A DNA stretch of 64,000 nucleotides from Balanoglossus misakiensis (lineage: Eukaryota; Animalia; Hemichordata). The position numbers were made by a program, and so were the translations under genes. A model generated the notes under the pieces. The model was given only the letters and a program-made list of their open reading frames with translations, ran no database searches and was not told the DNA's origin. The DNA lies in the NCBI GenBank assembly GCA_040954595.2, contig CM082587.2, forward strand, positions 8,049,705 to 8,113,704, in the 5' to 3' direction. How positions within the stretch are numbered: the first letter of the stretch is position 1; every line of letters starts with the position of its first letter. Below, piece by piece: positions 13,997 through 64,000 of this stretch.

Positions 13997-13999
13997 TTG

Positions 14000-17709: not shown

Positions 17710-17802
17710 TTAGATATGAAGTGGTGCGCTCACAACATTATGCGCGGTTGAGCGTACGTATAGTGTACATTGTAATGCAAATTAGAGGTCAAACGTGAGG
17801 TG

Positions 17803-17845
17803 GCCACAGGTCAGGTGTGGGCTACAATTACCCCACACCTGTGGC
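17803..17845 (+). promoter_or_regulatory. CRESS-type rolling-circle origin stem-loop
   Basis: Perfect 10-bp stem CAGGTGTGGG (17812-17821) / CCCACACCTG (17832-17841), extendable by GCCA/TGGC; loop CTACAATTAC with nonamer TACAATTAC (1 mismatch to NANTATTAC); AGGT repeats just upstream; ~100 bp from the rep start. Confidence 0.82.
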
Positions 17846-34589: not shown

Positions 34590-37500
34590 TCAGTTAACAG
34601 GTTCATTTTCTTGTACGTCGTCGTAGGCACCACTCATGTTAACATACATCTAAGTAGATGAAAATAAAAAATTAAGAATATATTATTTCATGCATACTGC
34701 TGATTGGGGTAATAATACAGCTACGTCGTTGGGTATTAGTCTTCTTTCATAAAAAATAACTGTCATGAATCAAAATACGACAGCTGCTTTTGTTTATCTA
34801 GTTTGAGATGGGGTGCAGCGGTTTCGTAAGGTTGGTTATAATTGGTCAGTTCGTTGATCAAGTCTCAACCAATAGCCAACAGGCGCATCAATGTTTTGTT
34901 TTCATGTGAGGATAGGCGGCCTTCGAAGACGCTGCCAATTGCCCTCACCAGTTACGCGACACTGTCTGAACTAACCATGTGGTAATCAAAGATTTGGCGG
35001 ATGTCCTTGTCTTCTGCTTTTGATGTGAATGTTACAAATTGAACACAGAATACCCAAAGATACCTGTTTCGAAAATAAGCACATTTACTACATCTACGGT
35101 TGAAAATGACGAAAAAATCAGCATCACCTCCTCCTTTTCAAATTCTTTGAGGTCACCGATAAGTTGACTGAAGGATGGTCGTCTGCTTGACATCTCCGAC
35201 CAACAGTTCACCATTAAGACGTATCTAATAATGGAGAGACGGCCATTTAGGTGTAAAATGAGACAAGCAAATTGGATAGCTAGTTTTCTGTATTTCGTTT
35301 TTGGCATTTACGTGCATGTCTTAGAGTCTGTTCATTTGCCCCTTGTATCATTCTGTAACACACAATCGCCGGCCCCTCGACTTAATTGACTGATATGTGC
35401 GTGCCTGATTTGCACACTATGTAATATTAGATTCCCCCAGGTCTGCCAAATTGGTGTCTGCATATTCTTGTCTATTCCTATTCACCCGACTCTCGCTGCA
35501 TGTTAGTTTACTCACAAATCGCTATTGCAGTGCCTAGGTTTGCTCATTCGACCACCCTGCCGAACGCTTTCGATAACTTCATTCGATGACATACCAGGAT
35601 ATGGTGTGTTGCCTAGACAAAGAACAGAAGTTATTGACAGAGCGATGATGGCGTCCCATAAATGGATAACGGAATATTTCATAAAATGGTTAATTAACGG
35701 GAATTCTATACCAAGAAAAACCCTATTCCAAGTCCCACAATGCAATGCGCGCCGGTATAGGCTAGTATTAGCTGGACACCCTGCCTGAAGTTCACATATC
35801 CATCATCGGTATATTACACATTTGTAGTAGTATTTGGCATCTTCGTCTAAAGTAATGTAATTTATAAACTGGAATCTTTATTTTACTATGTTATCACTCG
35901 ATATACAGTTTTAGAAACACCCTTGAGTAACCGGGAAGGCGTCTATAAATGTAGGTGATGCAAATCCAGGCTATTAACCAGGATATTGTTGTAGTCCCTC
36001 ACCTAAAGTGACGATCTCCCACACAACCACACCAAATGACCAGACATCACTCTTTGTAGAATACTCAGCTGACAACAACGTTTCCGGTGCCATCCAACGT
36101 ACCAGGAGATCGTTCTTGGGAACAATTAGAACAAACCGCAAGTTCATTACCATTACAAATCAACATTAGTGTGCGACGTCCACGGTTGTAAACTCTCGAT
36201 CATGCTATATAAAGCAAACAGTTCCAAACTTCTGATGAGGATGTTAATCAAATCGTCTTAATTATACTATGCCTTGTTAATACCTGATTGTTCTCCAGAT
36301 CTTCTCCCAATGTTCTGTGACGTCGACCGAAGTTTGTAACTTTACAAGTCCTGTTTGCATCCAGTAACACGTTTCTTGCAGCCAAATCGCCATGAACACA
36401 CTGATGAAAGAAGCAAACATGCAGTTATGTAATAATTATTTGTCGATTCAATTCTGGCTTTTACTTCGTGCTAGGGGGTCAAATTACATTATAATTACTG
36501 CATTCTGGGTAAAAGGTCGACAAAGCACTGTAGTAAGAGTTTGAAGAAATATATTAATTGTATTTCATGACTTCCTTTGGTCATTGTCTTTGTAGTAAGC
36601 ATATTAAACTCGTTCATTTCTTTCGCATTTGGCTACTTTTTATGTTGCTAAGTTTCAGAAAGACCCAGTATCACCTATAAACATTCATTTCAAAAGATGA
36701 CAATAATCAGCCATCTTGAAATTAATTTGACCCCTTATGAGATTTCATCACTCACCTAGGTAGCAAAACATATTTAAGGTAGCGAGAATAGTATCTGTGG
36801 ACACCTTCCCATTTTTTTGCACAATTCTACTGCATCCACAAATACTCAGCACTATGTTCCAGGCAAAACGAGGGTGGTACCCCTTGTTAATAAAAGCACA
36901 CAGGTCTTGCCTGCTTAATAATTCATGATTTTAAATTGATGTATTTTCGTACCTCCTTTGATGACAAGTATTCCATTCCACTGGCAATGTGCCTGGCAAA
37001 GGTCATGACGTCATCGCTAGTCATGGCAACTGCTTTCATGGCGGGCTCGCCATTACTATATGTTTTTGATTCACGGGCAACGTTTTTCAGGTACTTCTGC
37101 AAATTACCGAGTGACATGAAGTCCATCAAAATGTATTGCGGCTCTGAAATTACAGAATGCAATTAATGTGTATGTATCTGGAAAAAAAACTGATGAGACG
37201 CACCACAATTTAAAATAACTATACACGTCCTACTTTGAAAGATCTCATCTTTGGACGATGTTATCTTCATTTTGACAGCTTACGAAAAACACAGGGATAT
37301 AAACTACAGCGACTGATAATACACGCCAAGCATGGGAGTACAAAAATGCTTAATTTGAAAAACAGCATGCAATAAAACTACCTGTCTGACTGCAACATCC
37401 TCTAATACACACAATGTGTTCATGTTGGCCAATACGTTTAAGTAAATCCAGTTCAGCCGCAAGTTTTCTTCTGTCGTCTTCGGAAGCGTTCTCTGTATTC

Positions 37501-40500
37501 GAAAAACATAGAACATGCAAAGCCTGTTGTGAGGTATATGATCCCAACCATGCATTCCTCCCAGAAATGTCAACTTATATATGCTGTTTAGTTCCACATT
37601 TCCAGAATATTAGGCCTTATAAACGATGTATGCAATATGTAAGTAATTCGTGTATACCGGTAGACATACCCAGCTAATTTAATTCCAACCACATGGCTGT
37701 ATGGGTGTAGGCGTAAGTGCCTTACCTTTCGCCATCTTCAGTGCCAATACAGTCACACCATCTTTACCCGCGAAGTCACGTGCCTCAGCTTTGAAGACTG
37801 CGCCGAATGAGCCTTCGCCGATAAGACCCCCCTTACTGACGTACTCTCGCGGACGTACTTTCGAGTGTCTACACCTTTTAAACAGTACAACAACAACGAT
37901 GGCGATGCAGGCGACGATCAAAGCGCTGATGGTAGAAACAGCAATTGTGGAAACATAGGATGATGTCGACTTCACTGTCATGGAAAATAATCCAAAAAAT
38001 GTGTCCATCAGGTATTTAAATATTATATTCCGTAACATTGTGAACATTTCTTAAAGCACCGTTTGGCGATTATTAGCCTAAAATGTATTCCATTGATCAA
38101 AAGGTACAACCGCAGGCAAATTGGCACTTTGCATTCATCGAATTAAACGGCGTCGCACCATTCCATCTTTCATTCTCCCTGTTTCCAACATTGGAGTATT
38201 GGCAACATCCCCATTAATGTGATAGTGACGAAAGTCACCGATTCGACATTCTTAATTGCAACAAAAACTTGTTTTGCAACATGCAACAACTGTACAACCA
38301 CAACAACCATCACCAAGTAAAGTGCACACGCCCTCCCTCCTGCACATCAAATCTTCGAATGTTAAACAATGAATACCACTGCAATCAAAATCTTGCAAAA
38401 TGACTTACACTTGACCGTGACCTCGACTGAGGGACTGCCAGTCTCCTGTTCACTTCCGTCGTAAAACTGGGTCACTGACCTACAACTATAATCACCGTCC
38501 ATCCACAACTCAGCGTTTTCGATTGTGAAGACATGTGACGTTGCATCTGCGACCTTTACTACGAATGTGCCGCTGGTGTTGGTCTGACACACGCTAAGCT
38601 GGTAAGGATCTGGATTTCCATCACGGGCCGTACACTCTATCACCAAGTCAGAACCTTCGACCACTTGCTCTCGTTGTACCAGGATTGAAACGTCTGATGC
38701 ATCTGTACACGGATAGAGAGAACCGACGGCAATCAAAATCCTTATGGTAATCAACTGTGCCTAAAATCCGTCTGCCTGTCTGTCTTTGTTTGTTTATGTA
38801 TATACGTCTGTACGTGTCTGTCTGTCTGCCTGCCTGCGTGCCTGCCTGTCTGTCTGTCTGTATGTACGTGTACGCACGCACGTACGTATGTATGTATTTA
38901 TGTATGTATCTATGTAGCTATGTATATCTATGTAGCCATGTATATCTATGCATCTATGTATGTATTAGACCGCTGGGTGGTATGTAGGTTTTTTTTCAAA
39001 TACTGTGGCTAGGCTGTACTTACATTCCACAATCAATTCAAGACTCTTCTCGGCCACCATAGTGGAATTATCATACAGACGGTTAGTCGCCACGCACATA
39101 AAGGAGCCGGCATCTGTTTTGGCGGCGTTTCCAATGGTGTAACTCGCTCCATCGTAAATTTCCTGCCCGTCCCTAAACCATTCCACGTCGGAAGCCGTTG
39201 GATTGGCATCTACCAGACATTCTAGGGTGACTAGCTCACCTTCTTTGGCGCGTACTTCATCACTGGCAAACATGATTTCTGGACCGTCTGTAATGTAGAC
39301 AGATACAACTTTGGCCTTAAAAACCCTTTACGGTTGTTTATACCATTTTCAGGAATGGGAAGCCAAGAAAACGTATAATATCGAAATCGTATATTAATTC
39401 CTTGTGACAAGCAAGACTAGTGTAGTTATAAGATATCCAGTAGTGCCGAGATTGTAATTGTTGAAATAGTAAAGAGAACATTACATTCACACAAGTAATA
39501 TAATTTATTAAATTAAACGAAAAATGTGACTTACACTGTACATTAATTACAATTTCTTTTTTACAGGTCAATATCGATGACTGTTCGTCTGTGAGGGACG
39601 GGTGTTCTAATCTGCAATCAAACCGGGCACCATTCTCGGTCTTGTCGAGGGTTGTGGTGAGGTCGTTCATCATTCCGGTCACTCTCTTCTCCTCAACGCC
39701 GTTCTTATACCAAACCAAATCGCCAAATGATGACAACATACACACAAGGGTGATCTCTTCGTCTTCAATCGTCGTGTAGCCAGGTTGTACGCTGCACTCT
39801 GGCCCATTTACTACGTGGGCAAATTCAACAGATGGTTCGTAAATTTAGAAATAGTGATTGTGGTGTGTGGTGTTACTGGTATGTGTTTGCATTATTTACC
39901 CTTTTCTCCGGTTTGCTTGAAATATGACTATTATATGTGAAAGTTAGCACCAATATACGTTCAATGCGGGCGATCAATAAGCATTACGTGAGGTCTTGCT
40001 GCAGGAAGTGAAGGAACATATAATTCACTTCATCACTCATGAAAATAACGTTTGCACAGGTTGCCAGACAATGCATGTTACTGTTGTTGTATTATACTAC
40101 CCTAAATTATTTTCAAACGTTACTTTTTACTAATAATTAATCTCCGTGCTTAAAATTGTACATATACCACTTACTTTTCATAAATTCCACGACGAAAATG
40201 TGCCGTCAAAATGTCGTATACTTACCAATTACAGAAAGGTTGGCTTTGGCGAATATTGATGAATCGAAGAACTCCTGACATGCGTAGATGTCCGACAGCT
40301 CGGGTGTCGCCCTCAATACCTTCAAGTGAAACTCGTACTGGGTGTCGTCCCCGACAATTTCGTAGACGTCGCTGTCGTCCACCGTTCGATCCAGGGATAT
40401 CCTGGTGCTTCCTTTCATCCACACAACCGCCGGGGGCGCACTCACGAAAGAACAGTTGAGCTGGACCGTATCGTTGGTGAGGGCAATGGTATCGCTTGGT

Positions 40501-43500
40501 CGCTCCTTGAAAACGTCTTGCTGCGTCACTGAAAAAGAGGAACAAAACATGAAATGTATGGAAAATGTTAGAGAAGATATAATCCAAGGGCTATATAGTT
40601 GTATACAGCACAGTCTGTGTTGAGTGACTGTGTCTATAGCGTTATCTACTAATAATAACCCGTCCGAAAACTTCTTGGTTATAAACAATCGCATATCACA
40701 GGGAAAATTGATGTTATGTGGTCAGATCATGAAAATAATGTTGATAACCCTTCCGTACTGTCACCATGATTAGACAATACAATTATAAACATTTTGCAAG
40801 TCCCTCACACCCAGCATCAAATCTCCACCCAGTGTCTGCTCTAAATTAAACGAATGACTTAAACTTTGAAATAAGTCGATATATGCCTCTTACATGTGAA
40901 AATTCGCACCAATGTACGTGTCAAAGTGGGCGATTAGTGAAGAAGCATAACGTTGCGTCTTGCCACAGAAAGTGAAGCATGGGTACATAAATTATACACT
41001 TCATCACTCATGAAAATAACGTTTGCGCAGGTTGCCAGACAATGTCTATTAAAGTTGTTTTGTTATACTGCCCTAAACGATTTTGAAACGTATGACTTTT
41101 TTCTCATAATGTAATGTAAAATTGTACATGTAGTACTTTTTCCATAAATTCGTCAACGTAAAGATATCGTAATATACTTACCAATTACAGACAGGTTGGC
41201 TTTGGCGGAAATTGACGAATCGAAGAAGTCCTCACACGCGTAGATGTCAGACAGCTCGGGTGTCGCCCTCAACAGCTTCAAGTGAAACTCATTCTGGGTG
41301 TCGTCACCGACAATTTCGTAGACGTCGCTGTCGTCCACCGAGCGATCCAGGGATATCCTGGTGCTTCCTTTCAGCCAAATCACCGCCGAGGGCGCACTCA
41401 CGAAAGAACAGTTGAGCTGGACCGTGTCGTTTGCGAGGGCAATGGTGTCGCTTGGTCGCTCCTTAAAAACGTCTTGCTGCGTCACTGGAAAAGAGGAACA
41501 AAACATGAAATTTATGGAAAATGTTAGAGAAGATATAATCAAAGGGCTATGCAGTTTTGTTAATAGGGTGACATATTAAAAAGCAAAAACCACACGATGG
41601 CTTCAAGTTCAGCTTGTATTTTTTTGTCATTTACTCCACTGACTATAGTTATGTACGTACGTACGCACGCACCTATGTATCTATGTACATGTATGTATCT
41701 ATGTATATCTATGTAGCCATGTATATCTATGCATCTATGTATGTATTAGACCGCTGTGTGGTATGTACTTTTTTCAAATACTGTGGCTAGGCTGTACTTA
41801 CATTCCACAATCAATTCAAGACTCTTCTCGGCAACCATAGTGGAATTATCATACAGACGGTTAGTCGCCACGCACATAAAGGAGCCGGCGTCTGTTTTGG
41901 CGACATTTCCAATGGTGTAACTCGCTCCATCGTAAATTTTCTGCTCGTCTCTAAACCATTCCACGTCGGAAGCCGTTGGGTTGGCATCTACCAGACATTC
42001 AAGGGTGACTAGCTCACCTTCTTGGGCGCGTACTTCATCACTGGCAAACATGATTTCTGGACCGTCTGTAATGTAGACAGATACAACTTTGGCCTTAAAA
42101 ACCCTTTACGGTTGTTTATACCATTTTCAGGAATGGGAAGCCAAGAAAACGTATAATATCGAAATCGTATATTAATTCCTTGTGACAAGCAAGACTAGTG
42201 TAGTTATAAGATATCCAGTAGTGCCGAGATTGTAATTGTTGAAATAGTAAAGAGAACATTACATTCACACAAGTAATATAATTTATTAAATTAAACGAAA
42301 AATGTTACTTACACTGTACATTAATTACAATTTCTTTTTTACAGGTCAATATCGATGACTGTTCGTCTGTGAGGGACGGGTGTTCTAATCTGCAATCAAA
42401 CCGGGCACCATTCTCGGTCTTGTCGAAGGTTGTGGTGAGGGTGTTTATCATTTCGGTCACTCTCTTCTCCTCAACACCGTTCTTATACCAAACCAAATCG
42501 CCAAATGATGACAACATACACACAAGGGTGATCTCTTCGTCTTCAATCGTCGTGTAGCCAGGGTGTACGCTGCACTCTGGCCCATTTACTACGTGGGCAA
42601 ATTCAACAGATGGTTCGTAAATTTAGAAATAGTGATTGTGGTGTGTGGTGTTACTGGTACGTGTTTGCTTTATTTACCTTTTTCTCCGGTTTGTGTGAAA
42701 TATGACTATTATATGTGAAAGTTAGCACCAATATAGGTTCTAAGCCGGCGACCAAGAAGCATAACGTGGGGGTCTTGCTGGAGAAAGTGAAGGAACATAC
42801 AGATATAATACACTTCATCACTCATGAAAATAACGTTTGCACAGGTTGCCAGACAATGCATGTTACTGTTGTTGTATTATACCACCCTAAATTATTTTCA
42901 AACGTTACTTTAAACTAATAATTAATCTCCGTGTGTAAGATTGTACATATACCACTTCTTTTCATAAATTCCACGACGAAAATGTGCCGTCAAAATATCG
43001 TATACTTACCAATTACAGACAGGTTGGCTTTGGCGGAAATTGACGAATCGAAGAAGTCCTCACACGCGTAGACGTCAGACAGCTCGGGTGTCGCCCTCAA
43101 CAGCTTCAAGTGAAACTCATTCTGGGTGTCGTCACCGACAATTTCGTAGACGTCGCTGTCGTCCACTGAGCGATCCAGGGATATCCTGGTGCTTCCTTTC
43201 ATCCAAGTCACCGCCGAGAGCACACTCACGAAAGAACAGGTGAGCTGGACCGTGTCGTTGGCGAGGGCAATGGTGTCGCTTGGTCGCTCCTTGAAAACGT
43301 CTTGCGTCACTGAAAAAGAGGAACAAAACATGGAAAATGTTAGAGAAGATATAATCCAAGGGCTATGCAGTTTTGTTAATAGGGTGACTTATTAAAAAGC
43401 AAAACCACACGATGGCTTCAAGTTCAGCTAGAATTTGTTTGTAATTTACTTCACTGACTATAGTTGTGGACAGCACAGTCTGTGTTGAGTGACTGTGTAT

Positions 43501-44019
43501 AGCGTTATCTACTTACAATAACCTATCGGAAAACAACCGCATATCACAGGGAAAATGGATGTTATGTGGGCAGATCATGAAAATAATGTTGATAACCCTT
43601 CCCTACTGTCACCATGAATAGACAATACAATTAAAAATATTTTGCAAGTCCCTCACACCCAGCATCAAAACTCCACCCAGTGTCTGCTCTAAATTAAACG
43701 AATAACTTAAAGTTTGAAATAAGTCGATATAACACTTCCTTATTTCTATCATGGTTGGATTATACAGTGTCCATCCATTTTTAGTTCATTAGTAACTCAG
43801 AAATCACTTGATATTTATGTCAGAATTTGCCACTTCATTTCAGTTTATATCCAGCCATACTTCCCAATTCCAAATTTCATGACGTGAACTAAACTTAATC
43901 AGTGACACAATTGCAACTGAAAGACTTCATGCTTGGTGTGACTTACCTGCTGGTTGAGCAAACAAGACAATGATGCACATAAGACGTACGGACACGGAGG
44001 GTGGTAATTTTTCCATCAT
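34590..44019 (-). CDS. Ig-domain receptor tyrosine kinase-like protein (FGFR/RET-related fold), probable pseudokinase
   Basis: Signal exon 44019-43947 [24 protein letters not shown]; eight Ig exons 43310-38410; TM plus IGEGSFGAV...ALK exon ~37978-37725; [11 protein letters not shown] exon 36400-36284; RWMAPE...SDVWSFG; PYPGM; CW...RPSF; last exon [19 protein letters not shown]. Confidence 0.9.
38765..38965. repeat. Compound microsatellite (GTCT/GCCT/GTAT)n
   Basis: Direct reading; partial copy at ~41650-41745. Confidence 0.85.
38900..43730. repeat. Recent intragenic tandem duplication of the Ig exon block (~2.75-kb offset)
   Basis: ~38920-40890 is nearly identical to ~41690-43730, including introns; extra first-type Ig exon at 41180-41487. 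Confidence 0.9.
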
Positions 44020-45382: not shown

Positions 45383-48300
45383 TTACTTCACACAGGATTC
45401 GCTGGGCTCGAGTGTGAAGTCCTCCTTTCGAACTTCTATCATCATAGTAAATGCCAACGCAAACATGAAGGCCTGTATATTAGACATAAAGAAGTCTGAG
45501 TTAATTCAATAGATGTGACTGAATTAATGAAAGTACATGTATGACTTTCTCCAAAGTAGGGAGTTTGGAATCATCAAAGCTCACTTTAAACATGACACAA
45601 TATCATCAATTATACATATATGATAAGTATTTGCCCGTCAGCTAGAAATTTGAATGCCAACGGACTGCGTCTGACGTCATTTGATATCGAAAAAAGTGAT
45701 TTATATCAAACCCATTTGGTGAACTTTTACAGTTAAATCTTACTCACATTTTTCAAATCCTGCTTGTCGTTCCCACTCAGTAGCGTCACAAGTAAAAATT
45801 GCATGACGAGTACGATCTCTACAAATATGGTGTAGTCTCCAATGCTGTTTGTAAACACACCAGTGAATTGAATATTATTTACTGGAATTGCGAATTCACC
45901 AGCAGTGAATGACGTCAGATGGGTGCAGTGGCATATTGTGTAGTCGCTTCTTGATAACTGCAGATCTGGCTGAAAGTATACAATAGATAGAACAATCCAA
46001 CATTAAACCGTCTGTCCCTCATCCCCCCTCCCCTCCCTCCTTCCCCACTCGAACACACATTCATACATTCATGCACACGAATGATTATGTTATCATACAC
46101 TCTGGATATTAGAATACGGAAATCATCACCTCACCCCCACCACCACCACCACCACCACCACAATCATACGCCTACATGTATACCACATCTTACCCAGCAT
46201 CCATCCGTTTGCCATTTCTGGTTCACCTCGTTCCAGTACAAGCACGATACATATGACAACGAAAGTGTAATGGAGTGACTGGTAACGTTCTCGTCATTTT
46301 CGGCTATATAAACAACAAATGGAATGGAACGCGTAAAAACAATGCCAAAATTGACCTCATTTATGTACGGATTGTGATAAAAATTTGTAAAACCAACAAA
46401 ATATCTTAAATAGTTTTTGTCTAATACTATAAGAGATTGCAAAAGAATCCTCATATAGCAGATCATGAATGATACCAATTACGGTGGCACGTTTGGGTAA
46501 GGAGTAATGGCAAATATGTTGGATAGTAAACCAGCTCACACAGCAATACAATGCAATAGCGTTTGCCATGGTATTCTCCATTAATTTAATTAACAGTGCA
46601 GTGCTGTCAGCGGTGACTTGCCTGAATAATATATACCCTGTCCCTGTCAGGTGGCTTTTGTCTAATTTCAGGATCATACTTCTGATATGGTTGAAATGAT
46701 ACTAATTACTATACGACATTTGTCTTACCAATGCCTATTGAGAAGAAGTGGAATTGCTCGTCGGAGATGTTGACAGTCAATATTTGGACAGAGCCACCCG
46801 GGACCTTCCAGTGATTGTCGTAAACGGTTTTGTTGGGTGTTTCGTCGACTCGATGGTAAACGTCGTACTGCACGCCGGCCACGTCGGAGTCGGCGGAAAC
46901 TTTCATCACTTGAGCTGGAACGGTCACATTTGCATAAAACTCTGCTGTGCCACTAGCTTGTAAATTGAGACGCTGCTTGACACTTGAAGCATTCGCCACG
47001 CTGCTGATATTGATGGTGTACACATCGCTGGTTTGGACGAGTTGGCTAGTTTTGTCCAATGTTTCGAATGTCACCACTGGGAGTAACCTCAACTCTCTCG
47101 GAGATTGACATTGGTGAGGGTTAATCATCGATCCAATGAACTTGACCAAAGAGAAAACGCTTTGTGAGCATTGGGGTAAACAAAATTCGAAATCGTTGTA
47201 TTCATTTATTTCATGAAAGCAGAATATGCCAGTCAAAAGGTGAAAGGTGCGTACACTGCAACAGTGTGAGGTGAATATTTTTTGCCAAAAGAATTGAACA
47301 GTTCCAGGTATAGACAAACGTATGATGGCTAGTACTTTTACCTTGCTGGAAATGTTCACCAATGATCTGCTGGAGTTACCAGAGGATATGGAGAACCCGC
47401 CAGCTTCAGCACGCTGTCTAATACCACTCAAGTCACCGTCCTTCTCGTACGTTGCTACATTAGCCTCTAACATTCGTGACGTGTACTCGATACTGGTATG
47501 ATCCACACCCACATCCGGGGTCTTAATCAGCAAGGCCGTTTTGTTCAGACAGACATCTATCGCTTCTGACAGCAACGATATTAGACGAGCATCCTTTGAA
47601 TTCGAGAAGAAGAAAAAACAGCAAGTTGTGTTGGGTGTTCGGATATACCGCTTCGCTTTTCTCCCTGATTTTTTTTCCAGCATATCATTATCAGAATGCA
47701 AATGTAAAGGTATTGGAAAAATCTACCATCAAATCTACGTCACCAAATTAAAAGATTGGGTTTTACAGTTTATATTTAGAGAACAAAATCACTAACATTG
47801 AAACTATGTGGCCTGAAACTACCTATTTTCCGCGTTGTGTGATTTCTCCACGCTATGTCTTTAACCTGCAGTGTCTGGATTAATTACTTAACGCGGAGTG
47901 GACCAACACGCAAGTCGGGGTGAAATCGCACGACGCAGATAATTGGTACTTTCGGGCTACCGTGTGAAACAGTACTTACATCATCGCTACAAGTAACTTC
48001 AGTCGTTTGAGTAAGTGTGAGGCGATTTGCTTCGAATATATTAGAAGATGATTGAAACAGATCTGTAATATGGTAGAATGTGATAAAATTTAAACATCTT
48101 TTCACTGAACTGCCATTATATAAATAAAACAAAATAATTCGTAAAATTGCTACAAAGCGCGATTAATTATCCCATGATGGTAATATTACCACAGCATGTA
48201 AAATGTTAGTTCTCTGGGAGTGATTTTCGTGGTGTATACTTCAATGTGATTTTACAGAAAATTGTTCCTTGCGGGATCTGTAGTAAATTTGGCAAATGGT

Positions 48301-51300
48301 ACGTACCCTCTGAGGTTGTTACGACCGAAGTTTTGTTATCTATATCGATAACTGGATTAATGGCCAGGACTAGATCATGAATGAGTTCTGCCCCGATCAT
48401 CTAAAGCGGGAGAAAATATACGATACGATAGAGGTCATATCATGGAATAGTCAGTTACAAGCAGCCATGCTTTCTTAAAACTTAAAAGCTAGAAAAAATA
48501 TGACAATTGAAACCGTAATCGTAGCAATATATAATTAAGGGAAAACTTTTAAACAAAACTCGATCATTGAAACTTTCATAAATATAAACCTGAGTTTCTT
48601 GCACGAGTTCTTCGGGCGATCTGAACGATGTTACACTTAAAAGTGTCTGGGCGGTTTTCTCGGCACACGTCGATTCACATTGACTGGCATTGTAGCCTGA
48701 CGACAACACATCCATTAGCAAAGATCTAGCCTGCAATTGAAGAGTTTAAAATATACATTTCGTTTGAATGGGAACGATATACTACAATTGCTAATTCATG
48801 ACTTCTGTTAACTGTTTTACCAATGCGCCACTCCATGTGTGCAACAAACACATATCTATACCAATTTCTTTTGAGCTGGGGAAATGTTGAGATTTGATGG
48901 ACGGACCAAGCATACAACAAATATTCTATAAATTAATTAATTTAATTTTCATGAAACTTTGAGCGTCATTCTGTAAAACTTTGAGCGTCATTCTATACTT
49001 TTCTTTGTATAATAACATAAGTGACTACTAAGTGGCCTACAGTATCCGGATAAACATTTAATTTCTTATGCGAACGGACTAAACTTACAACAAATATGCA
49101 ATACGTTCCATAAGATCTGAAAAGAGGTGAATTGAGACTATAATTGACTACCATTATCTACCTGTTGTATTGCCTCCGTGACTGCTTCGGTTTTACCCTA
49201 GTTGAAAAAAAAAATATGTGTTAGAAATCATGGGCATTTGTCCATGGTAATTGGCCTTCAGAAATCAATAATCCCGACAAAAACAACACATTGTACGACA
49301 TAATTAATGTGTCGTACATTATGCCAAGTACATTATGCAGTATAATGTGTCCTAGTATAGTACTAAAAGACAATACTTTCGTACATCTAAGGCAAATACC
49401 GTATACATCTAAAATAATTTGTTATCAATTGAAGGCGTGAATCCAATCCAAGTAAGAGATTAATACAAAAAAATAGTTTGACTAACTTCATTAAAGGTGT
49501 TGATTGTATCAGCAACAACGCTGACTGTATTTAGTACCAAACTTCTGTCGATTGATCCAGAGTCAAAGTCGAAGTTCAGTACTTGTCTTTCAAGGTTTTC
49601 CACCAGCACAACAAATTCAAGTTCACTTGACGACGGTGCTACTTGTGGACCAAAGACCTAGAAATCAGAGAAGTAAATAGACAGTTTTGCTGTGGAGTTT
49701 TAAACATTCTGTTATATTAAATAATGGCTCCTTTTTCAGACAATGTCGTTCAACTTAAAATTTTGAAATATTTCTCACCAATATTATCATAACCTCAACC
49801 GTTGCTTCAAACGGTAGTTTAAATCAATTAAATCACGTTTGATTTCCTTTAAACCAGATTTGTGCGGCATTATTATAATTTCCCGCTGAGGGACACACAA
49901 CCATGCATTTATATCACCAAGACCAGCAGAGAGTTGAGAATTTGTGAATTCCCAAAATAATTTGTATAAAGTGAATGTCTCTCACACACCTGCGTGTCAA
50001 AATTATACGTTGCATAGTCGCCATACATGTCGACGATTCGAAAGAGTAATCGCACAGTGTAATTGTTTTCTTGTTTGCCAATCGGTAGGTATAATGCAGG
50101 AAATGATGAATTGGCACTGATGTACACAATTTGACCAACTGCGTCTGAGGGCGTATGGCTGGCTCTGAGTTCATAGGTCAACCCCACAGCATTGTTGTTG
50201 GTGTCAGCGCGGGATTCTGAACACTGCAGCGTGGTGTTTCCTTCGTCTGTCCAATCAAAGCACGTTGCGTAGAACTCATCCAGGACAGCACCTTTGGGCA
50301 AGAATACAAACATCATCCGATGATAAGAGGGATAGTCAGCAAAGGGTATGGCGATGACTGTATGTTGCCTACTTAGACCCATAGCATCTGGCAAGCAAGT
50401 TCCTGCATCAATATATAGAGCTTCGGTATTCGGGTTGTAGTATCGCCTGCCGGACACGACTTTTTTCTAATTGTCCATGTGGGTCACCGTATTTATTTTC
50501 GACCAACGAGACATATCTACAGCATGATGATCATTCCAAAATCTAGACTTTCTACGTTTCTAGTTTCCAAAGATGTCAGAATGTTATAGGGATAACAATT
50601 AACCACCTTACCAGTTTCGCGGTTCACTTCACAATGGCCACCGAATGGAGGTTCGTTATGACAAGCTGCAAACAAACATGTGAATTCATTATAAGGTCGC
50701 AATTCTTTCATACAAACATAAGAGTGCATATTAATTGATCACGTTTGCTTTCCTTTGCTTATATTTGACATCAAAATACGCTGAAATTTGACGGCCGAAG
50801 AGGACTTTGTTTACAAGTTGAAAGAAGTTCCGGTTGATGACGTCAGAAGTATGGCAATAACAATATAGCTTGCTCCATAATACCCTAGTGCTGACGTCAT
50901 ACTACGGTAATACGTGGAGATTGTGTATGTGATAACTATAATTACGTGGATTCTACGAACTGGTTTAGATTTTTTTTGCTGGTCCTGCACTGCATAAGTT
51001 TTCCACCCAGCCTTAAATTGGACAAGTGTCATACCTTCTTTAACAACCACAGTAAAGGAACAGTTTGCTTCATTGTCACAGTCATCCACTGCTGTACACG
51101 TTACCAGCTTCGTACCGATGTTGAAAATCGTCCCTGTGTTGGGCTCGCAAGTTACGGCGACGCTGGACTCTCCGTCGTCTGTGGCTGTTGGCAGTAGCCA
51201 TGTCACATTCCTGGAGTTCTCATACGTCTTTACAACTTGGTCACCGGGGCAGTTGCTTAGCACAGGAGCTGTACTCTCTGGAAGATCAGATATTATTCCC

Positions 51301-54300
51301 GCATAATTAGTTTTGTGAAGTTTCAATGGAGACTTTCTACTAAATGTGAAACCTTCCTCGCCACAATGCTACTGAGTACCGTGTCTAAATCTTAAGTATA
51401 CTCGGTATCTGATGTTAAGGTACGGTCTGATTTCGAATATTGTAATCTTCCTGATTAAATCAAAGAATGTTCCATACTAAAGAAAACAGGGTGCTGCAAT
51501 CTTACTTTTCAGTTTTGGGGTCTAAAATGTTATTGGGAAATGCTGAGTCGGTACTGATGTCGTACTCTTAATGATACATTTTTTGTTTTCATAAAAATTG
51601 TTGAATTGTATTTTTTCACACAAAAATCAAGTAGAACAGTGAAATGTAAGTATAATACCGTAATCGTGTTCTATGCCCTTTTAGCTTGATGTTCATATTT
51701 CTTTTACTTTTTCCTTTAAAGGGACAAAGTCTCTCTCTCGCTGCCCTGTTTTCCATTAATTATATTTGATACAAGACACCGTTTGTTATTCTACATGTGG
51801 ATATATAGTGAATGAACGTTCAACCACACACAACTTCCATTCCTCTTATAGACAGGAGAGTGAAAAAAATCGCCAAAATGAATAATCGGTCTTTACCATT
51901 TATTCATTTTGGCGAGTTTTTACTCTCATATCATACAAGTGGGATGGAAGTTTTGTGTGGTTGATCATTGATTCACTATATATCCACATTTACATTAACA
52001 TAAATGGTGTCTTGTATCAAACATAATTAATGGAAAAGGGGCAGCTGGAGAGAGACTTTGTCCCTTTAACTACATTACAATTTATCCACAAATCCATGAA
52101 ATTATATCATTCTTATAATGAACGAAGCAGCCAACCGTTGCGTAGACCGGGCATGGCAGCAACTGAAGATCCTAGTAGGTCGTGGCGACTGCAGTGGGGT
52201 TTGCGCTGGTATGGGAGGACATATTCTCATCAAGGGGGACACCCCCGCGGGGCAAAGACCACTTCCCCTTTCCTGTTTTTCTTTGTGCACAAAAGTACTC
52301 TCAAACACTTAAATAATATAAAACGCCATTGAAATGTTTTGAGGACGAAACTGTTTCTGAGAATCCTTCCCGGAGGCGCCTACCACCGACCTTTAGTTAT
52401 TTCGCAAGCAGGATAAGTCTCATGTTGGCAAGTTTTGTCGTTCCATTTACCATCCTCGAATGTACCGGTATGCACACAATCTTCATTACCAAACGCATTA
52501 TTGGGTTCTTCAATCTCCCAGAAGTCAGCGTTAAATTCTGCGATTTCACCGGTTATCCAACGAAATTGACCAGAGTCACCAACCTATGGTGAAAAGGGAT
52601 TATAATAATTTCAACTAAGCCAATCAATTTCACCAGACGTCGGTGTAATATTTAAGCAATAAAACACCCCCAGCCATGGTATACCACGAGATTTTGACCA
52701 GTTCATGGAGTTGAACTGGTCAAAATCGAGTGGTATACCATGGCTGGGAGTGTTTTATTGCTATTATATTATGCCAGTATATTGAAACTTTGCATAAAAC
52801 ATTTTTAAAAGGCATTTTCTTTGACTATGATATATGACTGTGGTATACGGCTAATATATCACGGTCACGTGTCGTGTCTCGACCAATCAAATAGCGTGAT
52901 TTACACCATCAATATACTGGTATAATATAATTATGGATATTATTAAATATATAAATTAGCGGTTAGTCGATGGAACACTGCATTATATCTCCCTGTTCCA
53001 ACAGCACTTTCACTTTGTTGGCCTGCTGCCCTGCAGGGTATATTTTCTTTCCTGAGGCCAGACATTTCAATGTGTAGAAGCCTATCCAAGCATTGCCATG
53101 GTTATCTGTGTTTCGGAATTTTAATCAGCTTTGCCAGTATTTTTTCTCAATGAAAATATTTATGGTAACCTGACATTTCAGCACCATATGCCGAAATGGG
53201 CAGAACCATGAAATCGGACGTTTTAAAATAAAAAAATAAGCTTTAAATAATCGCATACATTCTTTTAATTATGCCTATCACGACAAAATTCAACTTAGTA
53301 GCCGCCAAACTAGCAACACCGTATTTCATTGATGCCAGCGGCAAGTTGTCTCTGAAAGTGTAACAACGTCAAAATTTAGTAGACAAAGAGGCGCCCCCAT
53401 CCCAATTGCGCAGTTGAAGTTAGAATTTTCCATAACAAGTTTTACTAGTAACCTCAAAGTAATAAACACGTCAAAGTGTACATCACGTTTGGGCTTTTCG
53501 AAATGGGAAACAGAGGAACAAGAACACGTATATACTAATCATGAATACCTAACAAACACGTTGAATAATCCAGACCTGAAAATTTCACAAAGTATACTGT
53601 CCGTTAGAAAAATCCAGACTGAGTCAAGACATTCATTAAACATTATACTTCTATGTTTATCATCATAGAAAGGCCTCAGACACCTCCATATGCTGTCTGG
53701 CACAAAGGCAGTCATTATAATGTATAAAGAAATCATGTTCTCCGATGATTTCAAATGTGGAAAACCACGGCGATCAACGTACTCGAATGATAATCAGCTC
53801 TCGCCAGGGCAGACTCATACTTGTCCAGCTCATCCATTAAACGTATCAATGTACTCACATCTCGCTCTAGCCCAATCCAGTATTGATTGAATGGTTTCAA
53901 TTGGTTGAAACTGCTAAACTTAGACGGGGATTTTAACACTACCAGCGTTGAATCTGTTGACGCACAGAACTCTTTGGCCTGTGGATTTGTCATCTCTTCG
54001 TTATGAAACAGGTAGCACATGCCTGCGGTTTGGTCGAATACCCAACCATTTGGGCAACCTGAAACAAAGGTAATACAGATATCATATGGGACTTCAGTTT
54101 TCACGCAAGTTGAGACGTTGTGAACCGGCGTATAAGAGCCAAGGAATGCGAGAGTAGTCGATTGAGCCGTCATGACCGCAATACGCTCGAAGGACTAACG
54201 TATCAAACTGCAATCGCAACCTCATACTGTGATGGGAATGCAACTGTGGTCAGAGATTGTGAAATTAGCACTTCTTGTTATACCTTAAAAGCTGACTGGG

Positions 54301-54554
54301 TTCTACGGGCTACCACTGTCTTAACTATGAAATGAACGTATACTCTTACAATCGCATGCTTGTCATAATTCGCTCAGTTCACAGAATTGTCTTGAAATGG
54401 GTTTCTTTTGGATGAACGGACCTGAGCATTTAAACTATAATTTGCCTGCCCAAGACGTTAACGACATTATTAGAAACGGACATTTAGGAAAAAGGTAAAA
54501 CTTACACTGATTTTGACATTCTGTAATGTGAAGGCTAACCAATATGATGAGCAT
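45383..54554 (-). CDS. PKD1-like/REJ receptor (C-type lectin, HYR, partial REJ, GAIN/GPS, TM), lacking PLAT and channel domains
   Basis: CPNGW...CYLF...YWIGL (CTL); APVLSNCP...VTW..PTATD...CSFTVVV (HYR); PPFGGHCEV and F..TC.DW.D (REJ); CLYWNE..QKWQTDGC and TICHCTHLTSF (GPS) followed by a hydrophobic helix; exon chain and terminal exon partly inferred. Confidence 0.8.
51720..52065. mobile_element. Palindromic MITE (Kolobok-type)
   Basis: TTAA at 51716-51719 and 52066-52069; ~170-bp arms AGGGACAAAGTCTCTCTC.../...GAGAGAGACTTTGTCCCT form a nearly full-length hairpin. Confidence 0.88.
52655..52762. repeat. ~108-bp near-perfect hairpin, likely a non-autonomous transposon remnant
   Basis: AGCAATAAAACAC.CCCAGCCATGGTATACCAC..GATTTTGACCAGTTCA paired with its reverse complement across a short loop. 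Confidence 0.8.
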
Positions 54555-56498: not shown

Positions 56499-56820
56499 TT
56501 AACATAACAGCCAAATGAATCTCTCGACAGATAAGCAAAAAGATATTCGAACAGTTCGAAGAAATTTGTCGCCGGGTTGGGAAAAACCCATTGTCCTTCG
56601 GAGGAATTCAAATATCGCCAGCGGCGACTGTTTTCAACTGCCACCTGTGGCTAATCCACGTTTTGGGGACGAGGGGGAGATCTGTTTTCAGTCAGACCAT
56701 AGACCCTATGGTCAGACGTTCTTCTGAAATTCCACCATGTTAATTTAACAAAAGTCCATCTGCAATCACACACACACTTCTCATTAATACTGTACGGGAG
56801 ACAGCCCTTGGTTATATCAT
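56250..56820 (+). pseudogene. PIF1-family helicase fragment
   Basis: RIQSADVVMIDEISM (Walker B) and FGGIQ...SGDCFQLPPV (motif III); frameshifted and interrupted by (TTTA)n. Confidence 0.82.
56456..56500. repeat. (TTTA)n microsatellite
   Basis: Direct reading. Confidence 0.95.
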
Positions 56821-57552
56821 AGACCCTAGAGAAACATCAAACATCTGTAAGTATAGAAAACTGTATTGCCCAAACTACCTTTTGTCGGTGTCGACTGGGA
56901 AGATTGCAGCATACAAAAAGAAAAAATCCAAAATCACTTTCACTGCAAAATATACCAATGTGATATTTGCAATCATCAGAGTTTGAATTGACAGACAACA
57001 AAGTATACCAGCTGTAACAAAACCAAAGAATTGGCTGCCCACTTATACTGTGATGTCATTTCTCACGTCTGGCTAATACCATAAGGATTACAATCAGTGA
57101 TGTAATGGATCGAATGGGATTGCCAAAAGTGTCAGAATCCATACACTGGATCATCCAACAGGGGATACATCCGATGTATCCCCTGTTGGAATATGTACGC
57201 CCTCAGGCGTATTATAAAGACAAGCAGACAGACAAAGGTGTTTTGCTTTTCATTTATCATATTCAAACAGGAAAACGCCGTAGTTTCAGTGTTTATTGGC
57301 CATGCACTTCTGAGTCCCCGTGTATAAACTCAGGTTGACGTACTTGCATATCTGTTGGTTGCGTAATCAGTGTATGTCTGTCTGTGTGATTACTTGGTTT
57401 ATTTTAAATATCTATAAATGCAAGGCTATCGATACGTCTCATTCTTCCTCGATTGCGATCAGCATTTTGTGTAAGATTTGTACGTACGCCGGCCTGACTG
57501 TTAGCTGTGGTGAAATCAGTAAGTGGTTTGCGCAGGCGTTTCTATACCAGTG

Positions 57553-60500
57553 ATGGCCGCCGAGAAAACACGGTTAGTGCATTTGTGTGTATTTACTATA
57601 ATATTAACTTAAGGGGAGTTGCACCGGCCACAGAAGCGGTAATCAATATCTCTCAGTGTTGAGGGGTCGCTAAACTCTACCTGTACCACTAGCCCTGAAC
57701 AGCTTAAGGGCAAAGGTCAATTTGTGAGCTAAATGGTCACAAAGTAGTCATCATCGCCCGTTTTTCATAGCATCACGCAACGTCATTGGCTCGACTACAG
57801 TCTCCCTTTATCAAGATTTCACCAACGATAGTATACTGTACATGCATCTTGCTGATGTTGATAAAGTGATCACATCCTTGACAAGTCAATGCCAAAGAAA
57901 ATGGGTAAGATGTTCGTGGGTATAGATTGCAACAGTGTGTTGACTGATGATAACAAGTTGCGATTGGGTGTAAAATAAAGTCACGGGAAATGATCGTGGT
58001 ATTACTCAAGCTGTATTCTGAACTTTATGATGGTGTCAAAGCAGACTGCCTTCAGACTGCCTTCATCAGCCTTTCCCTTACCAAAGCATGTGTTGCCTAC
58101 GTACCATTCATAATCACTAGACGACATGACGGGTTATCTAAGTAAGACACAAAGAAGTTGTATGTCTCCACAAATGTGTCACTACACTTTTTGCAGACGA
58201 CGAATCATGCGAATGAAGTTGTCGAATGATTCAAGTTCCGCACGTGCACTGACTCACATTGCCAAATCGTAATCTTTCCTGTTTCTTTCCCAACAGCTGT
58301 GGCCGAAAGATTGTCGGTTGTATCACCCCAATATGTAATAATTAACCCAATATGTAATACTAACCCAATATGTAATAACACCTTAACCCAATATGTAATA
58401 CTAACCCAATATGTAATAACACTTAACCCAATATGTAATACTAACCCAATATGTAATAACACTTAACCCAATATGTAATAAACTTTAATTCTACATGAAA
58501 TAACGTTAATTCTACATGAAAAAAAAACGTTATTGGTTAACCCTATATCTAATAAACTTTAATTCTACATGAAATAACGTTAATTCTACACGAAAAAAAC
58601 GTTATTAGTTAACCCTATATGTAATAAACGTTAACCCTATATGTAATAAACTTTAGTTCTACATGAAATAACGTTAATTCTACATGAAAAAAAACGTTAT
58701 TGGTTAACCCTATATCTAATAAACTTTAATTCTACATGAAATAACGTTAATTCTACACGAAAAAAACGTTATTAGTTAACCCTATATGTAATAAACGTTA
58801 ACCCTATATGTAATAAACTTTAGTTCTACATGAAATAACGTTAATTCTACATAAAAAATACGTTATTAGTTAACCCTATATGTAATAAACTTTAATTCTA
58901 CATGAAATAACGTTAATTCTACATGAAAAAAACGTTATTAGTTAACCCTATATGTAATAAACTTTAGTTCTACATGAAATAACGTTAATTCTACATAAAA
59001 AAATACGTTATTAGTTAACCCTATATGTAATAAACTTTAACCCAATATGTAACACTAACCCAATATGTAATACACCTTGTAATAACACCTTAACCCAATA
59101 TGTAACACTAACCCAATATGTAATAACACCTTAACCCAATATGTAATACTAACCCAATATGTAATAACATTTTAACCCAATATGTAATAACACTGCCCTA
59201 ATGTATTTTAATGCTAAGCTAAATGAAATACACCAAATCAATATGAAATTATATCTCAATATGAATTAAAATCCTTACTAAACATGGTTTAAAACTAAAC
59301 TCAATGTTTTTCATTAACCCAATATGTAATAACACTTAACCCAATATGTAATGGTAAAGGTGGCTTGTATTTTTTTTTACGGGGGGGGGGGGGTACATTT
59401 GTCTTTCTGGGAAAAGACCATAATATTATTTCATCTATTTTCAATAGCGGTTGTGATAGATGGGGGAAACCCTATTGTTTAACATACTTCCCGCTTAACC
59501 CAACGAATTACTTGCAAGTTCCAGTAGCATTTGATAGTCCTGGTAAAGTTAACATAGTGATAGATTTACCTAACCTTTACAGCCACATGAAATCAAGGTA
59601 AATTTTGTTGTTTGAACCTCTACCTTTATGCTATATTTCGCAAAACTATTACTATCGGCAGTTAGTATACGGATCCACCCACCCGGGGACTGCAACCACC
59701 GGGCTAATTCTCCACATTTATCCCGTATCACCCGAGGTGGGGAGGCCGCGGGGGTACGTTGGGGTTAGAAAATAAAGGGTGCGAAACTGCAATTTTGTGG
59801 ACTCAAAAGCACAAGTTTTGTGGCAAAAGTATGTGAACCCCTAAACGTTTTTTTAAAAAAGATGACCCCCCCCCCCCCCCCGCGTTTGGACTTCAAAATT
59901 ACGAAAGGTATACTTGACGCGTAAGGCGTTCAAGTGTTCAATATCAGTATCTGTTTCCCTTTTGACGGACAAGTAGTGTGCACGGATGGTAAAGTGTAAC
60001 CCCGCCCCCATCTGTACAAGTGAGGGTTGAAGTGTCCTGATGTATATGGCTTCATTAATACATCAAATTCTCTGTCTAAAATTTGGAAATTTTCCATGTC
60101 AATTATGTGTCCTGGGTATTCTCTGTATATGTCTGGAAGCTTCCATCTGAGACAATATGTTGATGTCACGCATGCGTACACAACTTGATTTCACTACTTT
60201 TATAAAGACTTGAGTTTTACTTCAACTCTATTGGGTTAATATTACATATTCAAACACATTAGGGCAGTGTTATTACATATTGGGTTAAAGTGTTATTACA
60301 TATTGGGTTAGTATTACATATTGGGTTAAGGTGTTATTACATATTGGGTTAGTATTACATATAGGGTTAAGGTGTTATTACATATTGGGTTAGTATTACA
60401 TATAGGGTTAAGGTGTTATTACATATTGGGTTAGTGTTACATATTGGGTTAAGTGTTATTACATATTGGGTTAGTGTTACATATTGGGTTAAAGTTTATT

Positions 60501-61017
60501 TCATACAGGGTTAACGTTTATTACATATAGGGTTAACTAATAACATATTTTTCATGTATAATTAACGTTATTTCATGTAGAATTAAAGTTTATTACCTAT
60601 AGGGTTAACGTTTATTACATATTGGGTTAGTATTACATATTGGGTTAAGGTGTTATTACATATTGGGTTAGTATTACATATTGGGTTAAGGTGTTATTAC
60701 ATATTGGGTTAGTATTACATATAGGGTTAATTATTACATATTGGGGTGATACAGTCGGTCTGGTTGCGCTGGTGACACTTTTCGTGCTCACCGTGGCGGC
60801 TGGCATAACCGCCGTGCTGTTGCTTGCTTCCAGCGACGATGAGGGCGCCGGATACACGTACTCCAGGGCGGCCGTGGCAGCTGACAATGGCCAGTGTTCC
60901 CAGGTGGGAAGGTATGGCAGTAAATGTACCATTAGCTTTTAAATTCGTATATTCAGAGACCACCATTTTAACGGTAATATACAAGGTTGGCTTAGAAAAG
61001 TCCCAGCAACTTAACAC

Positions 61018-61056
<39 letters not shown>

Positions 61057-64000
61057 ACCGTTTGATGAGTCACTGTCCCCTAAAAGCACTTTGCAACGTA
61101 TTATAATATTTGGACAGAGATATCTTGATGGGAGGAGGTTCTGCGGTGGATGCTGCCATTTCATCCATGTTGTGTATCGGCGTTGTGCACTGTGATAGCG
61201 CAGGTAGGACATTTCTTAGCCTCGATGATTATAGCGGGGGGGGGGGGTGCTCCGCAACCCACCGCTACAAGGCCAAAGTACAAGCAATTTGCTGTTCCAC
61301 TTACCGATGCCGGCCCAGTGGTACGAGTTCGACTCTTACGACCGGTAACCTGCTAGCGCTGTTCTCCATCCCTTAAAAATGCCGATAAATCCACCACATT
61401 TCCAACGGAAATTCAACCTCATCCGCCATCTTTAATGGTCACGTGAAGTATCCGAACACATCTGGTGCACACGTTACGTTGCCGTCGAAGTGATCTGTCA
61501 TTGGCTAGATCTCAAATTGCCCTACATTTGCTAAGGTTTTAGCTTTTATTCATGATCGTCAATTCAAAGCAATATACATATTAACCCCTACAGGCATAGG
61601 CGGTGGATTTTTCATGACGGTACACAACAAGGAGGATGGGAAAACCGAAGTCATCGACGCCAGGGAAACAGCGCCATCACAAGCTAACCAAACGATGTTT
61701 GTGGAGCAGCCGGAAAGGTCAAGGGAAGGCAAGTTCATGAAGTTATTTCTGTGGTCCACTTGGCATTTGAAGCTTTTTTTTATAAAACCCATACTTCCGT
61801 GACGTCATGATCAAAATCGTGGTTTAAATCATGCCGTTATTGACTTTCCGACCGACGGAATCTGTGGAGCATGTTCTTTTACGCTTACGTTACGCAGGTT
61901 TTCGTTTAAACACACGGAATAGCTTTTGTTATAACAATAGTTTCACGTCACTTGCAAAATAATATGCAGACTATATTTAATCACAAAAATCACGTGACTG
62001 GTTCCACACAGCTAATCTTTATTTCAGTACAAAGACCGTCTTTGGTTTAAGCATATTACGTTGTTTTTACCAATATTTTCACGACTCGTTCATTACAGGT
62101 GGCTTGGCGGTGGCCACACCCGGTGAACTGCGCGGGTACTGGGAAGCTCATCGACGATACGGCAAGCTGCAATGGAAACAACTGTTTCAACCCGCCATTA
62201 GTATCGCCACTGAGGGTTTCGAGATTGGCGCCTCCCTCGCCAAATCGATCAGGGATTCTGAAGCGTCCGTAAGAAAGGACCCAGGGCTAAGGTAAGTCTA
62301 GTCAATTTTAGCCAAACTATAGAGCCTTCATGATTCGACATGCTGCACTGCCAGTTACAATTTGACCAAATTATTTTATCTAATTTAGACGCAACTTATG
62401 GCCATTTTGTACAGTCTGGTAGCGATGCGTTATAACATTTAAATAAAAACTATGGCGATTATCATATTTTCCATTTTAAAAGCGAATAATCTAAACTTGC
62501 ATTTATGAATAAGAGGGAGGGTTTGAGACTGATTGTGAGGTGCGTACTGCGTTCAAAAGCTTCACACTTTTTCAAGTCTATGTCATATTTCTTTTTCATT
62601 ACAATTGAAAATCATCTCCAGTGATCTCTTTCTGAACGAAGACGGGTCGTTGAAAGTGGAGGGCGATCTTTGCACAAATGAACTCCTCGCCGAGACACTG
62701 CAGAAAATCGCTGAGGAGGGACCCGATTATTTTTACACGGGAGAGTTTGCCTCATTGACGGTACACGAAGTGTCCGAAGAGCAAGGTTTGTAGGCGCTTG
62801 TAACAGTCTGTAGTTTAAAGTTTAAAGGGCGGCGATCGTCTTATGCCCATGCGCCAAACCAGGCACTCTGGTTACAAAGATTGTATACAGTCAGTGCCAT
62901 AAGGGAGTGTACTGTCCTAACAACAGACAAGATGGCGACGACCATAGTCTGTGTCAGACACCGGGAAAGACAACAAATTGGCTGAAAAGAAGGAACAAAA
63001 GTAAAGTCTACTTTTGCGTTGCGCATGAAATATGGAAGGTAGCGAAGGCAGTCCGTTATTTGAATGCGTCGGACGCAAAAGTTGCAGTTGGATTGGACGT
63101 AATGATTGTACACACGAAATTATGCACATGCGCATAAGATGATCGTCAGCCCACGGATGGTTCTTGGTTTCATTTGGTAATAAAGTCGGCCAGACTAATA
63201 CTAGTACATACTCAATCATGTATTTTTGGTATTACACGTATAGGCTACCAGTTAGAGTTGTCAAAAGAAAACAAAACATATCCATTCATCCATTCAACAA
63301 CAAACATAATTTTGAATTCTTAATGTATGATTCTTTTCAAGGTGGCATTCTAACTCTATCCGACCTCGTGAACTACACGGTCGCGATCAAAGAGCCGCTG
63401 CAGATAGATTTTGCCGGTTATACTGTTGTTACAGCGCCGCCACCGTCAAGCGGTGCCGTGGTTTTGATGCTGCTCAATATTATGGACGGTATAATAATAA
63501 TATCTTGTTAATAGAAACTCTTTTTTATGATAGAATACAACATACCAGAGGCGTTTTAAAAACAGTAACTCTCCATTTTAAAAGGATATCATGAGTACAA
63601 TGGGATACTTGAAGGGACCAATCAAAACACTCATGGACACAAACCAAACAGTCGTATATGAATATGCATGCGCAATTGCACAACTGAAATTCATGCCCAG
63701 AAAATGTACCATGTATTCCTAAAGGATAGACTGTCCCTAAAATTAGGCCAGGTATATAGGCTTTGTTTCCGTTCATGACCGCTGTAACATTACACTGAGT
63801 TTTCAAAAACTGCACCCAGTCAATAAAACCACATCGCATACTGTTTTAATTACTAGATTAACTGCCTTGGGTGAGATATACTGACCTTGATGGATTTATA
63901 ATAACTGAAAAATGCCTTTGTTTTTGTTTCAAATTTAGCCTTTGACCTTTCGGAGATGGACATGTCAAACACAGAGAAAACAGTGCGTACTTACCATCGA
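57553..64000 (+). CDS. GGT1: Gamma-glutamyl transpeptidase / glutathione hydrolase 1-like; exon 2 interrupted by a foldback element; gene continues past the window
   Basis: Exon 1 ATGGCCGCCGAGAAAACACG|GTTAGT; exon 2 CGRKIVG//LVALVTLF...AAVAADNGQCSQVGR; DILMGGGSAVDAAI; GIGGGFFM...IDARETAP; GGLAVATPGELRG; APPPSSGAV. Confidence 0.9.
58319..60753. mobile_element. Foldback-type non-autonomous DNA transposon with minisatellite arms
   Basis: 6-bp TSD GTCGGT (58313-58318, 60754-60759); termini TGTATCACCCCAATATG / CATATTGGGGTGATACA; arms built from AACCCAATATGTAATA and TTAATTCTACATGAAA repeats in inverted orientation; non-coding centre. Confidence 0.93.
61018..61055. repeat. (GAT)n microsatellite in a GGT intron
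   Basis: Direct reading. Confidence 0.95.

Follow-up and report, generated by a model that had tools for sequence, protein, structure and literature searches.

An inserted element of 2,435 nt splits exon 2 of a gamma-glutamyltranspeptidase (GGT) gene in a 64,000-nucleotide stretch of Balanoglossus misakiensis DNA (hereafter, the window, the coordinates of which are used throughout). This raises the question of whether the filled copy of the gene has been disabled or whether the element is, instead, spliced from the message as a newly gained intron. An earlier note on this DNA had offered a knockout allele and an intron gain as the two possibilities. Both outcomes were aptly chosen but they are not equally likely, given how common the coincidence of frame is, how weak the splice sites are and the stem in which they are predicted to lie. 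The filled copy is probably a recent, heterozygous loss-of-function allele created by a foldback insertion, with the empty site being present in the same sample.

The split gene and the inserted element

The identity of the host gene was considered by scanning five stretches against Pfam, three of which, namely, all three scanned among exons 3-8, contained G_glu_transpept. The two stretches without this match were a frame inside the element and the half-exon encoding the signal anchor, the latter of which matches the N-terminus of the human GGT1 heavy chain (E 0.00072). When the element and one copy of the duplicated target site were removed, 327 stop-free codons spread over eight exons were obtained up to the end of the window, beyond which the gene extends; the exon borders were set by hand, and the 327-codon frame depends on them. 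The insertion enlarges exon 2 from 174 to 2,615 nt. The exons downstream, previously described as looking intact, keep an open frame through the window end (Table 1). Intron 4 begins with GC at 61729 (AAG/GCAAGT), making this a GC-AG intron, as demanded by the reading frame.

Table 1. Positions of the GGT exons, the inserted element and its flanking duplication in the window.
Feature	Position	Strand	Evidence
Predicted GGT exon 1, with ATG, 20 nt of coding sequence and a phase-2 donor (57573)	57553-57572	+	Phase fits exon 2, giving an open frame
GGT exon 2, 5' part	58297-58318	+	Strong native acceptor 58296, 98th percentile of 6728 AGs
Left GTCGGT copy, holding candidate donor GT 58317-58318	58313-58318	+	
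Non-autonomous foldback-type DNA element	58319-60753	.	Left junction in X1 contig record 6
Left arm, made up of a 25-nt end, units of 18/22/23 nt and seven units of 72-74 nt	58319-59212	+	
Middle domain, 1035 nt	59213-60247	.	Six-frame translation, Pfam, Rfam
Right arm: same unit types as left, one 72-nt unit	60248-60753	-	
Right GTCGGT copy, the G of which completes candidate acceptor AG 60753-60754	60754-60759	+	
GGT exon 2, 3' part, encoding the signal anchor and the first conserved strand	60760-60911	+	GGT1 match
GGT exons 3-5	61118-61203, 61594-61728, 62099-62291	+	Open frame
GGT exons 6-8	62622-62785, 63342-63488, 63939-window end	+	Open frame

The element begins with TGT, ends with ACA and is flanked by a GTCGGT target site duplication. 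When direct repeats of 3-14 nt were compared at the flanks, a match was obtained at a length of 6 only, random agreement of two such 6-mers having a probability of ~3e-4. The termini are mutually reverse-complementary, with a single mismatch in the first 103 nt. The arms, of unequal length (left, 894 nt; right, 506 nt) and unequal content of long units, are composed of tandem units that resemble the terminal 25 nt of the element. The middle domain includes a G run at ~59381 and a C run at ~59866. Six-frame translation of this domain revealed no transposase, its 100-residue stop-to-stop frame gave no Pfam match, and an Rfam match was likewise not obtained. No further copy was found within the 64-kb window. 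Still, at least three loose-end matches, as counted among 12 of 20, have different flanks at the element end, pointing to a dispersed family. The hexamers beside the ends of two other copies are GTTGTT and AGCCCC, while the flank of a third ends in GGT. Together with GTCGGT, the flanking hexamers hint at a possible purine-N4-pyrimidine target, as judged from very few copies and with the duplication length there being presumed. Summed depth at the element end was 2142 in run X1 and 24588 in run X2, values that do not give a copy number, as units of the end recur in the arms.

Repeat-built inverted arms, a target site duplication, a transposase-free middle and dispersed copies are the features of a foldback-type TIR element, and the element is an ordinary young foldback insertion, non-autonomous in nature. 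Its earlier description as a foldback element is borne out by the inverted, repeat-built arms, and all of the coordinates given at that time proved correct on re-examination.

In sea urchins, foldback elements are known as TU. Like Drosophila FB, Tetris and Galileo, the present element combines long inverted arms of tandem units, present in unequal numbers, with a non-coding middle domain lacking a transposase, this being the foldback architecture described in PMC4079207, where a sea-urchin foldback is also cited. The same source reports duplications of 8-10 bp for Tetris and assigns most foldbacks to Mutator; the present element differs from these in its 6-bp duplication and TGT..ACA ends. 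With IS3EU/GingerRoot, found in animals, it shares the 6-bp duplication (one copy examined); its TG..CA ends are a minority form there, reported for 5 of 77 GingerRoot elements (PMC6839031; PMC10045372). Ends in that group are mostly TA..TA and TIRs span 100-150 bp, unlike the 506- and 894-nt repeat-built arms, without a transposase, seen here. Nonetheless, the combination of TG..CA ends and a 6-bp duplication would make IS3EU/GingerRoot the best lead. Ginger1 and Ginger2 have TGT termini in common with this element, yet membership is ruled out by the 6-bp duplication and the TGTAT end, given the 4-bp duplication and TGTNR end reported in PMC2836005; a 6-bp duplication is listed for Ginger2 in PMC6839031, in conflict with PMC2836005 and PMC10045372 (4-5 bp). 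Polinton/Maverick elements, with AG ends and a 6-bp duplication, are ruled out by the TG..CA ends. No described family of the same build was encountered in the literature searched, comprising mostly open papers, with Repbase and Dfam lying outside that search, and no claim of absence is made.

Sequencing evidence for the filled and the empty site

Contigs at or near the locus were available from three runs, all of a single sample and none of RNA. The comparison covered positions 56600-58350 of the window, where run X3 contributed no contig, and the right junction is known from the window alone. Record 6 from X1 (83 nt; depth 20.8) carries both intron 1 and element sequence across the left junction and agrees with the window at every letter, showing that the insertion is real on this side. 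Record 7 from X1 (341 nt; depth 38) runs from intron 1 and departs from the window at 58318, its next 30 letters being identical to 60760-60789, i.e., it carries a single GTCGGT hexamer without a footprint, as expected of the empty site that the earlier note had proposed be sought in the other haplotype. Record 15 from X2 likewise ends at 58318.

Neighboring contigs at the GGT locus presented depths of 36-40, while contigs from other loci presented depths of 37.6, 39.7, 30.1 and 21.2. Although contig depth is a rough measure, a depth of ~40 likely reflects both chromosomes and one of ~21 a single chromosome. The filled left junction is found at about half the depth of the empty site, and the insertion is therefore likely heterozygous and hence young. 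That the sample contains both forms also accords with the earlier view of a probably recent event. The sample is possibly the source of the window, and does not serve as independent evidence on insertion frequency.

The empty contig shares intron sequence with one difference in 57 nt, and it differs from the filled contig by one letter upstream, presumably at 58292 given the geometry of the contigs. Somatic excision is an unlikely origin of the empty form, considering its full depth, the absent footprint and this one-letter difference upstream. Between 56600 and 58291, same-sample contigs show ~1% substitutions relative to the window, along with a 24-nt indel at 57149 and a 4-nt indel at 58139, reflecting high heterozygosity; exon 1 contains no differences among these contigs.

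The candidate splice junction

The GT at 58317-58318, the AG at 60753-60754 and the predicted product with one extra valine are as described previously. Joining the two sites adds 3 nt, in frame and without introducing a stop codon, and leaves the hydrophobicity of the anchor basically unchanged (2.68 vs. 2.69). A second GT, absent from the earlier note and lying within the element at 58320, likewise keeps the frame when joined to 60754, in this case adding 6 nt.

The frequency with which such geometry arises by chance was considered by virtual insertion, in which the element ends were placed at each of 876 positions in the GGT frame. An in-frame, stop-free GT..AG pair was obtained at 317 of these sites (36%), including 245 of the 267 targets that begin with G. 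Such pairs are common because an element with TGT..ACA ends and a 6-bp duplication carries a GT at its second and third positions and gains an AG if the target begins with G. When the GT was required to lie inside the duplication, an in-frame pair was seen at 54 of the 876 sites (6%), with the exact geometry of the observed insertion appearing at 19 of the 876. The in-frame GT..AG thus hardly exceeds chance, being expected at 6-36% of sites.

Splice-site strength was scored with weight matrices derived from 29 donors and 24 acceptors hand-picked from genes in the window, some with provisional exon borders. That both candidate sites are weak, as proposed earlier, was confirmed by their low scores relative to the window's own introns. 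Donor 58317 scored -5.6, lower than every one of the 29 native donors, the leave-one-out scores of which span -1.3 to 8.8; it falls in the 44th percentile of 8179 GTs and is 126th among the 188 of the enlarged exon. Acceptor 60754 scored -1.4, below 23 of the 24 natives, in the 72nd percentile of 6728 AGs and ranking 20 of 80 in the enlarged exon; it is preceded by 6 pyrimidines in 14 nt, as compared to 7-13 in natives. A branch-like YTRAY motif is found 24 nt upstream of this AG, with no intervening AG, in a test that is insensitive, scoring only 2 of the 7 native GGT acceptors as positive at -18 to -45. Stronger acceptors in or after the right arm are found at 60508, 60602 and 60833, the last of which, a cryptic acceptor in the 3' part of exon 2 (score 2.5; 96th percentile of AGs), falls beyond the arm stem. 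The exon's own acceptor, at 58296, is undamaged, with a score of 3.9. In the right arm (60300-60712), a donor-like 9-mer with a score of 3.3, within the native range, occurs at least eight times on the plus strand; these copies could serve as cryptic donors inside the element.

Predicted pairing with U1 was more favorable to donor 58317. Its duplex energy of -4.8 kcal/mol is among the top 13% for 4179 GTs and equals or surpasses that of 2 of the 29 native donors; the site is 38th of the 187 in the exon and the best-pairing GT of the interval 58300-59212. Pairing involves a 1x2 loop, corresponding to the asymmetric-loop-psi register, which was demonstrated in human minigenes (PMC4856993). The intron side of donor 58317 is that of the oligo for which this register was validated (Table 2 of PMC4856993), and the calculated pairing is the same. 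In the same program, however, that oligo gave -8.7 kcal/mol, the donor being weaker because its positions -2 and -3 are unpaired. Moreover, PMC4856993 predicts use of this register for 115 of 201,541 human donors and reports that a PIK3R4 donor of this type was abolished by -2C in a human minigene; donor 58317 has C at -2. The GT at 58320 pairs with U1 at just -1.3 kcal/mol.

The terminal 111 nt of the arms are predicted to form a duplex of -175.8 kcal/mol. Stems that cover splice sites are known to inhibit their use. Pairing of the arms would, as suggested earlier, bring the ends together, but the predicted stem reaches 4 nt into the duplication and encloses both the GT and the AG, which counts against splicing. 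Over the 11 nt of the donor, arm pairing was calculated at -9.8 kcal/mol, as compared to -4.8 kcal/mol for U1.

Predicted fate of the filled allele

A transposase encoded elsewhere and acting in trans would have made the insertion, as the anatomy of the element suggests, with the tandem units of the arms perhaps corresponding to repeated transposase sites, as was proposed for Galileo (PMC4079207). The first in-frame stop in a message retaining the element is TAA 58343-58345, at codon 23, and the left arm contains 10 AATAAA motifs, i.e., 11 per kb, vs. 1 per kb in the window. Transcripts of the filled allele would mostly end prematurely at this cluster, decay by virtue of the early stop or skip exon 2, the last of which would preserve the frame at the expense of the anchor and the first conserved strand. 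Enzyme would be supplied by the empty allele, thereby sheltering the loss.

The main rival, namely, an intron gain in progress, in which efficient splicing from 58317 to 60754 yields a working enzyme with one added valine, is decidedly unlikely. By this route, U1 would engage the donor through the asymmetric-loop register while transcription has yet to reach the right arm. The in-frame, stop-free product with its anchor hydrophobicity kept, the intron side shared with the validated oligo, the lead of 58317 over the other GTs of 58300-59212 in U1 pairing and the branch-like motif at -24 are consistent with such an event, as are introners on record that add codons and co-opt both sites (PMC9860276; PMC12130899). 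Several points weigh against it: the donor is calculated to pair less strongly than does the oligo and bears the -2C that abolished a donor of a register predicted to be rare; arm pairing is predicted to be stronger than that of U1 on the same 11 nt; the candidate AG is transcribed only once both arms exist; better acceptors are found nearby; and a single locus is involved, at which the in-frame coincidence is of a common sort.

Partial rescue of the filled allele would likewise be unlikely, whether through splicing of exon 1 to 60833, giving an anchor-less, in-frame GGT, or through leaky use of 58317 or 58320, giving a little normal-like enzyme. The exon 1-60833 junction is in frame and stop-free, its product loses the hydrophobic segment (peak of 1.57 vs. 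2.69) and 60833 is a high-ranking acceptor clear of the arm stem; the 58320 junction also preserves the frame. Against this, the stronger native acceptor at 58296 remains available, the U1 pairing of 58320 is slight and an anchor-less GGT is expected not to enter the secretory route, as would be the case for GGT1 without its signal anchor. It is more improbable still, and indeed barely credible, that the empty form represents a second, near-identical GGT copy or that the filled form is a fixed pseudogene or an assembly error. While such readings draw on the roughness of contig depths and on the reliance of the right junction on the window, the filled left junction was seen in a contig, the empty contig shares intron sequence with a single difference in 57 nt, the flanks have the depth seen in contigs of other, unrelated loci, in keeping with one diploid locus, and the GGT frame downstream of the insertion is open.

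The preferred reading, that of a young transposon, from a foldback family with a less usual type of ends and duplication, disabling one copy of a metabolic gene, is of little weight in itself. There is a small chance that an intron has been caught at birth in an animal; a segregating 2.4-kb foldback would then be spliced in frame, with the target supplying the GT and the terminal TGTAT of the element the rest of a non-canonical U1 register. Were this true, TGT..ACA elements with 6-bp duplications would be pre-adapted introners, offering an in-frame GT..AG in a third of exonic insertions. With filled and empty alleles in one animal, the first step in transposon-driven intron gain could be measured directly, in terms of splicing efficiency and allele-specific expression, neither of which fixed introners permit. 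Even so, a spliced element would add one more case to a process already known, with its value lying in the polymorphism.

Introners (Gozashti et al., 2022, 2025) share with this element TIRs and a duplication, splice sites partly derived from that duplication and a frame-keeping GT..AG at the junctions. Their recruitment of sites in part from the duplication, with extra codons being tolerated, was reported in PMC9860276, and introners that co-opt sites and add codons also appear in PMC11282704. Families co-opting both sites include one of four copies in sea urchin (~0.9 kb, non-LTR) and a hAT family of six copies in the tunicate Styela (PMC12130899, supplement file 8, with 12 of the 14 supplementary files covered). 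Introners are, however, RNA-checked families of spliced introns found at several loci, whereas here, a single exonic copy is seen in DNA alone, with weak sites in a long stem. As an introner, the element presents the geometry only.

Elsewhere in the window, a cluster of frames resembling mobile elements spans 6400-18400, including a YqaJ recombinase with a PHD finger at 7609-8625 (minus strand), a partial duplicate thereof at 8682-9130 and a C2H2-like frame near 17984-18349. At 17401-17709 (minus strand), a fragment resembles the replication protein of circular ssDNA viruses; its match to Pfam Viral_Rep (E 1.6e-05) falls slightly under the cut-off, and it is probably derived from an endogenous virus or carried by a transposon. 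A tandem array of ~1.3-kb units, 78-89% alike, occupies 24873-32356. On the minus strand, an Ig-domain gene with kinase-like 3' exons lies at 36900-43950, with its Ig exons being tandemly duplicated (38869-40600 vs. 41652-43372, 94% alike), while one or more polycystin-1/REJ-like genes with C-type lectin, HYR and REJ domains are found at 45700-54550.
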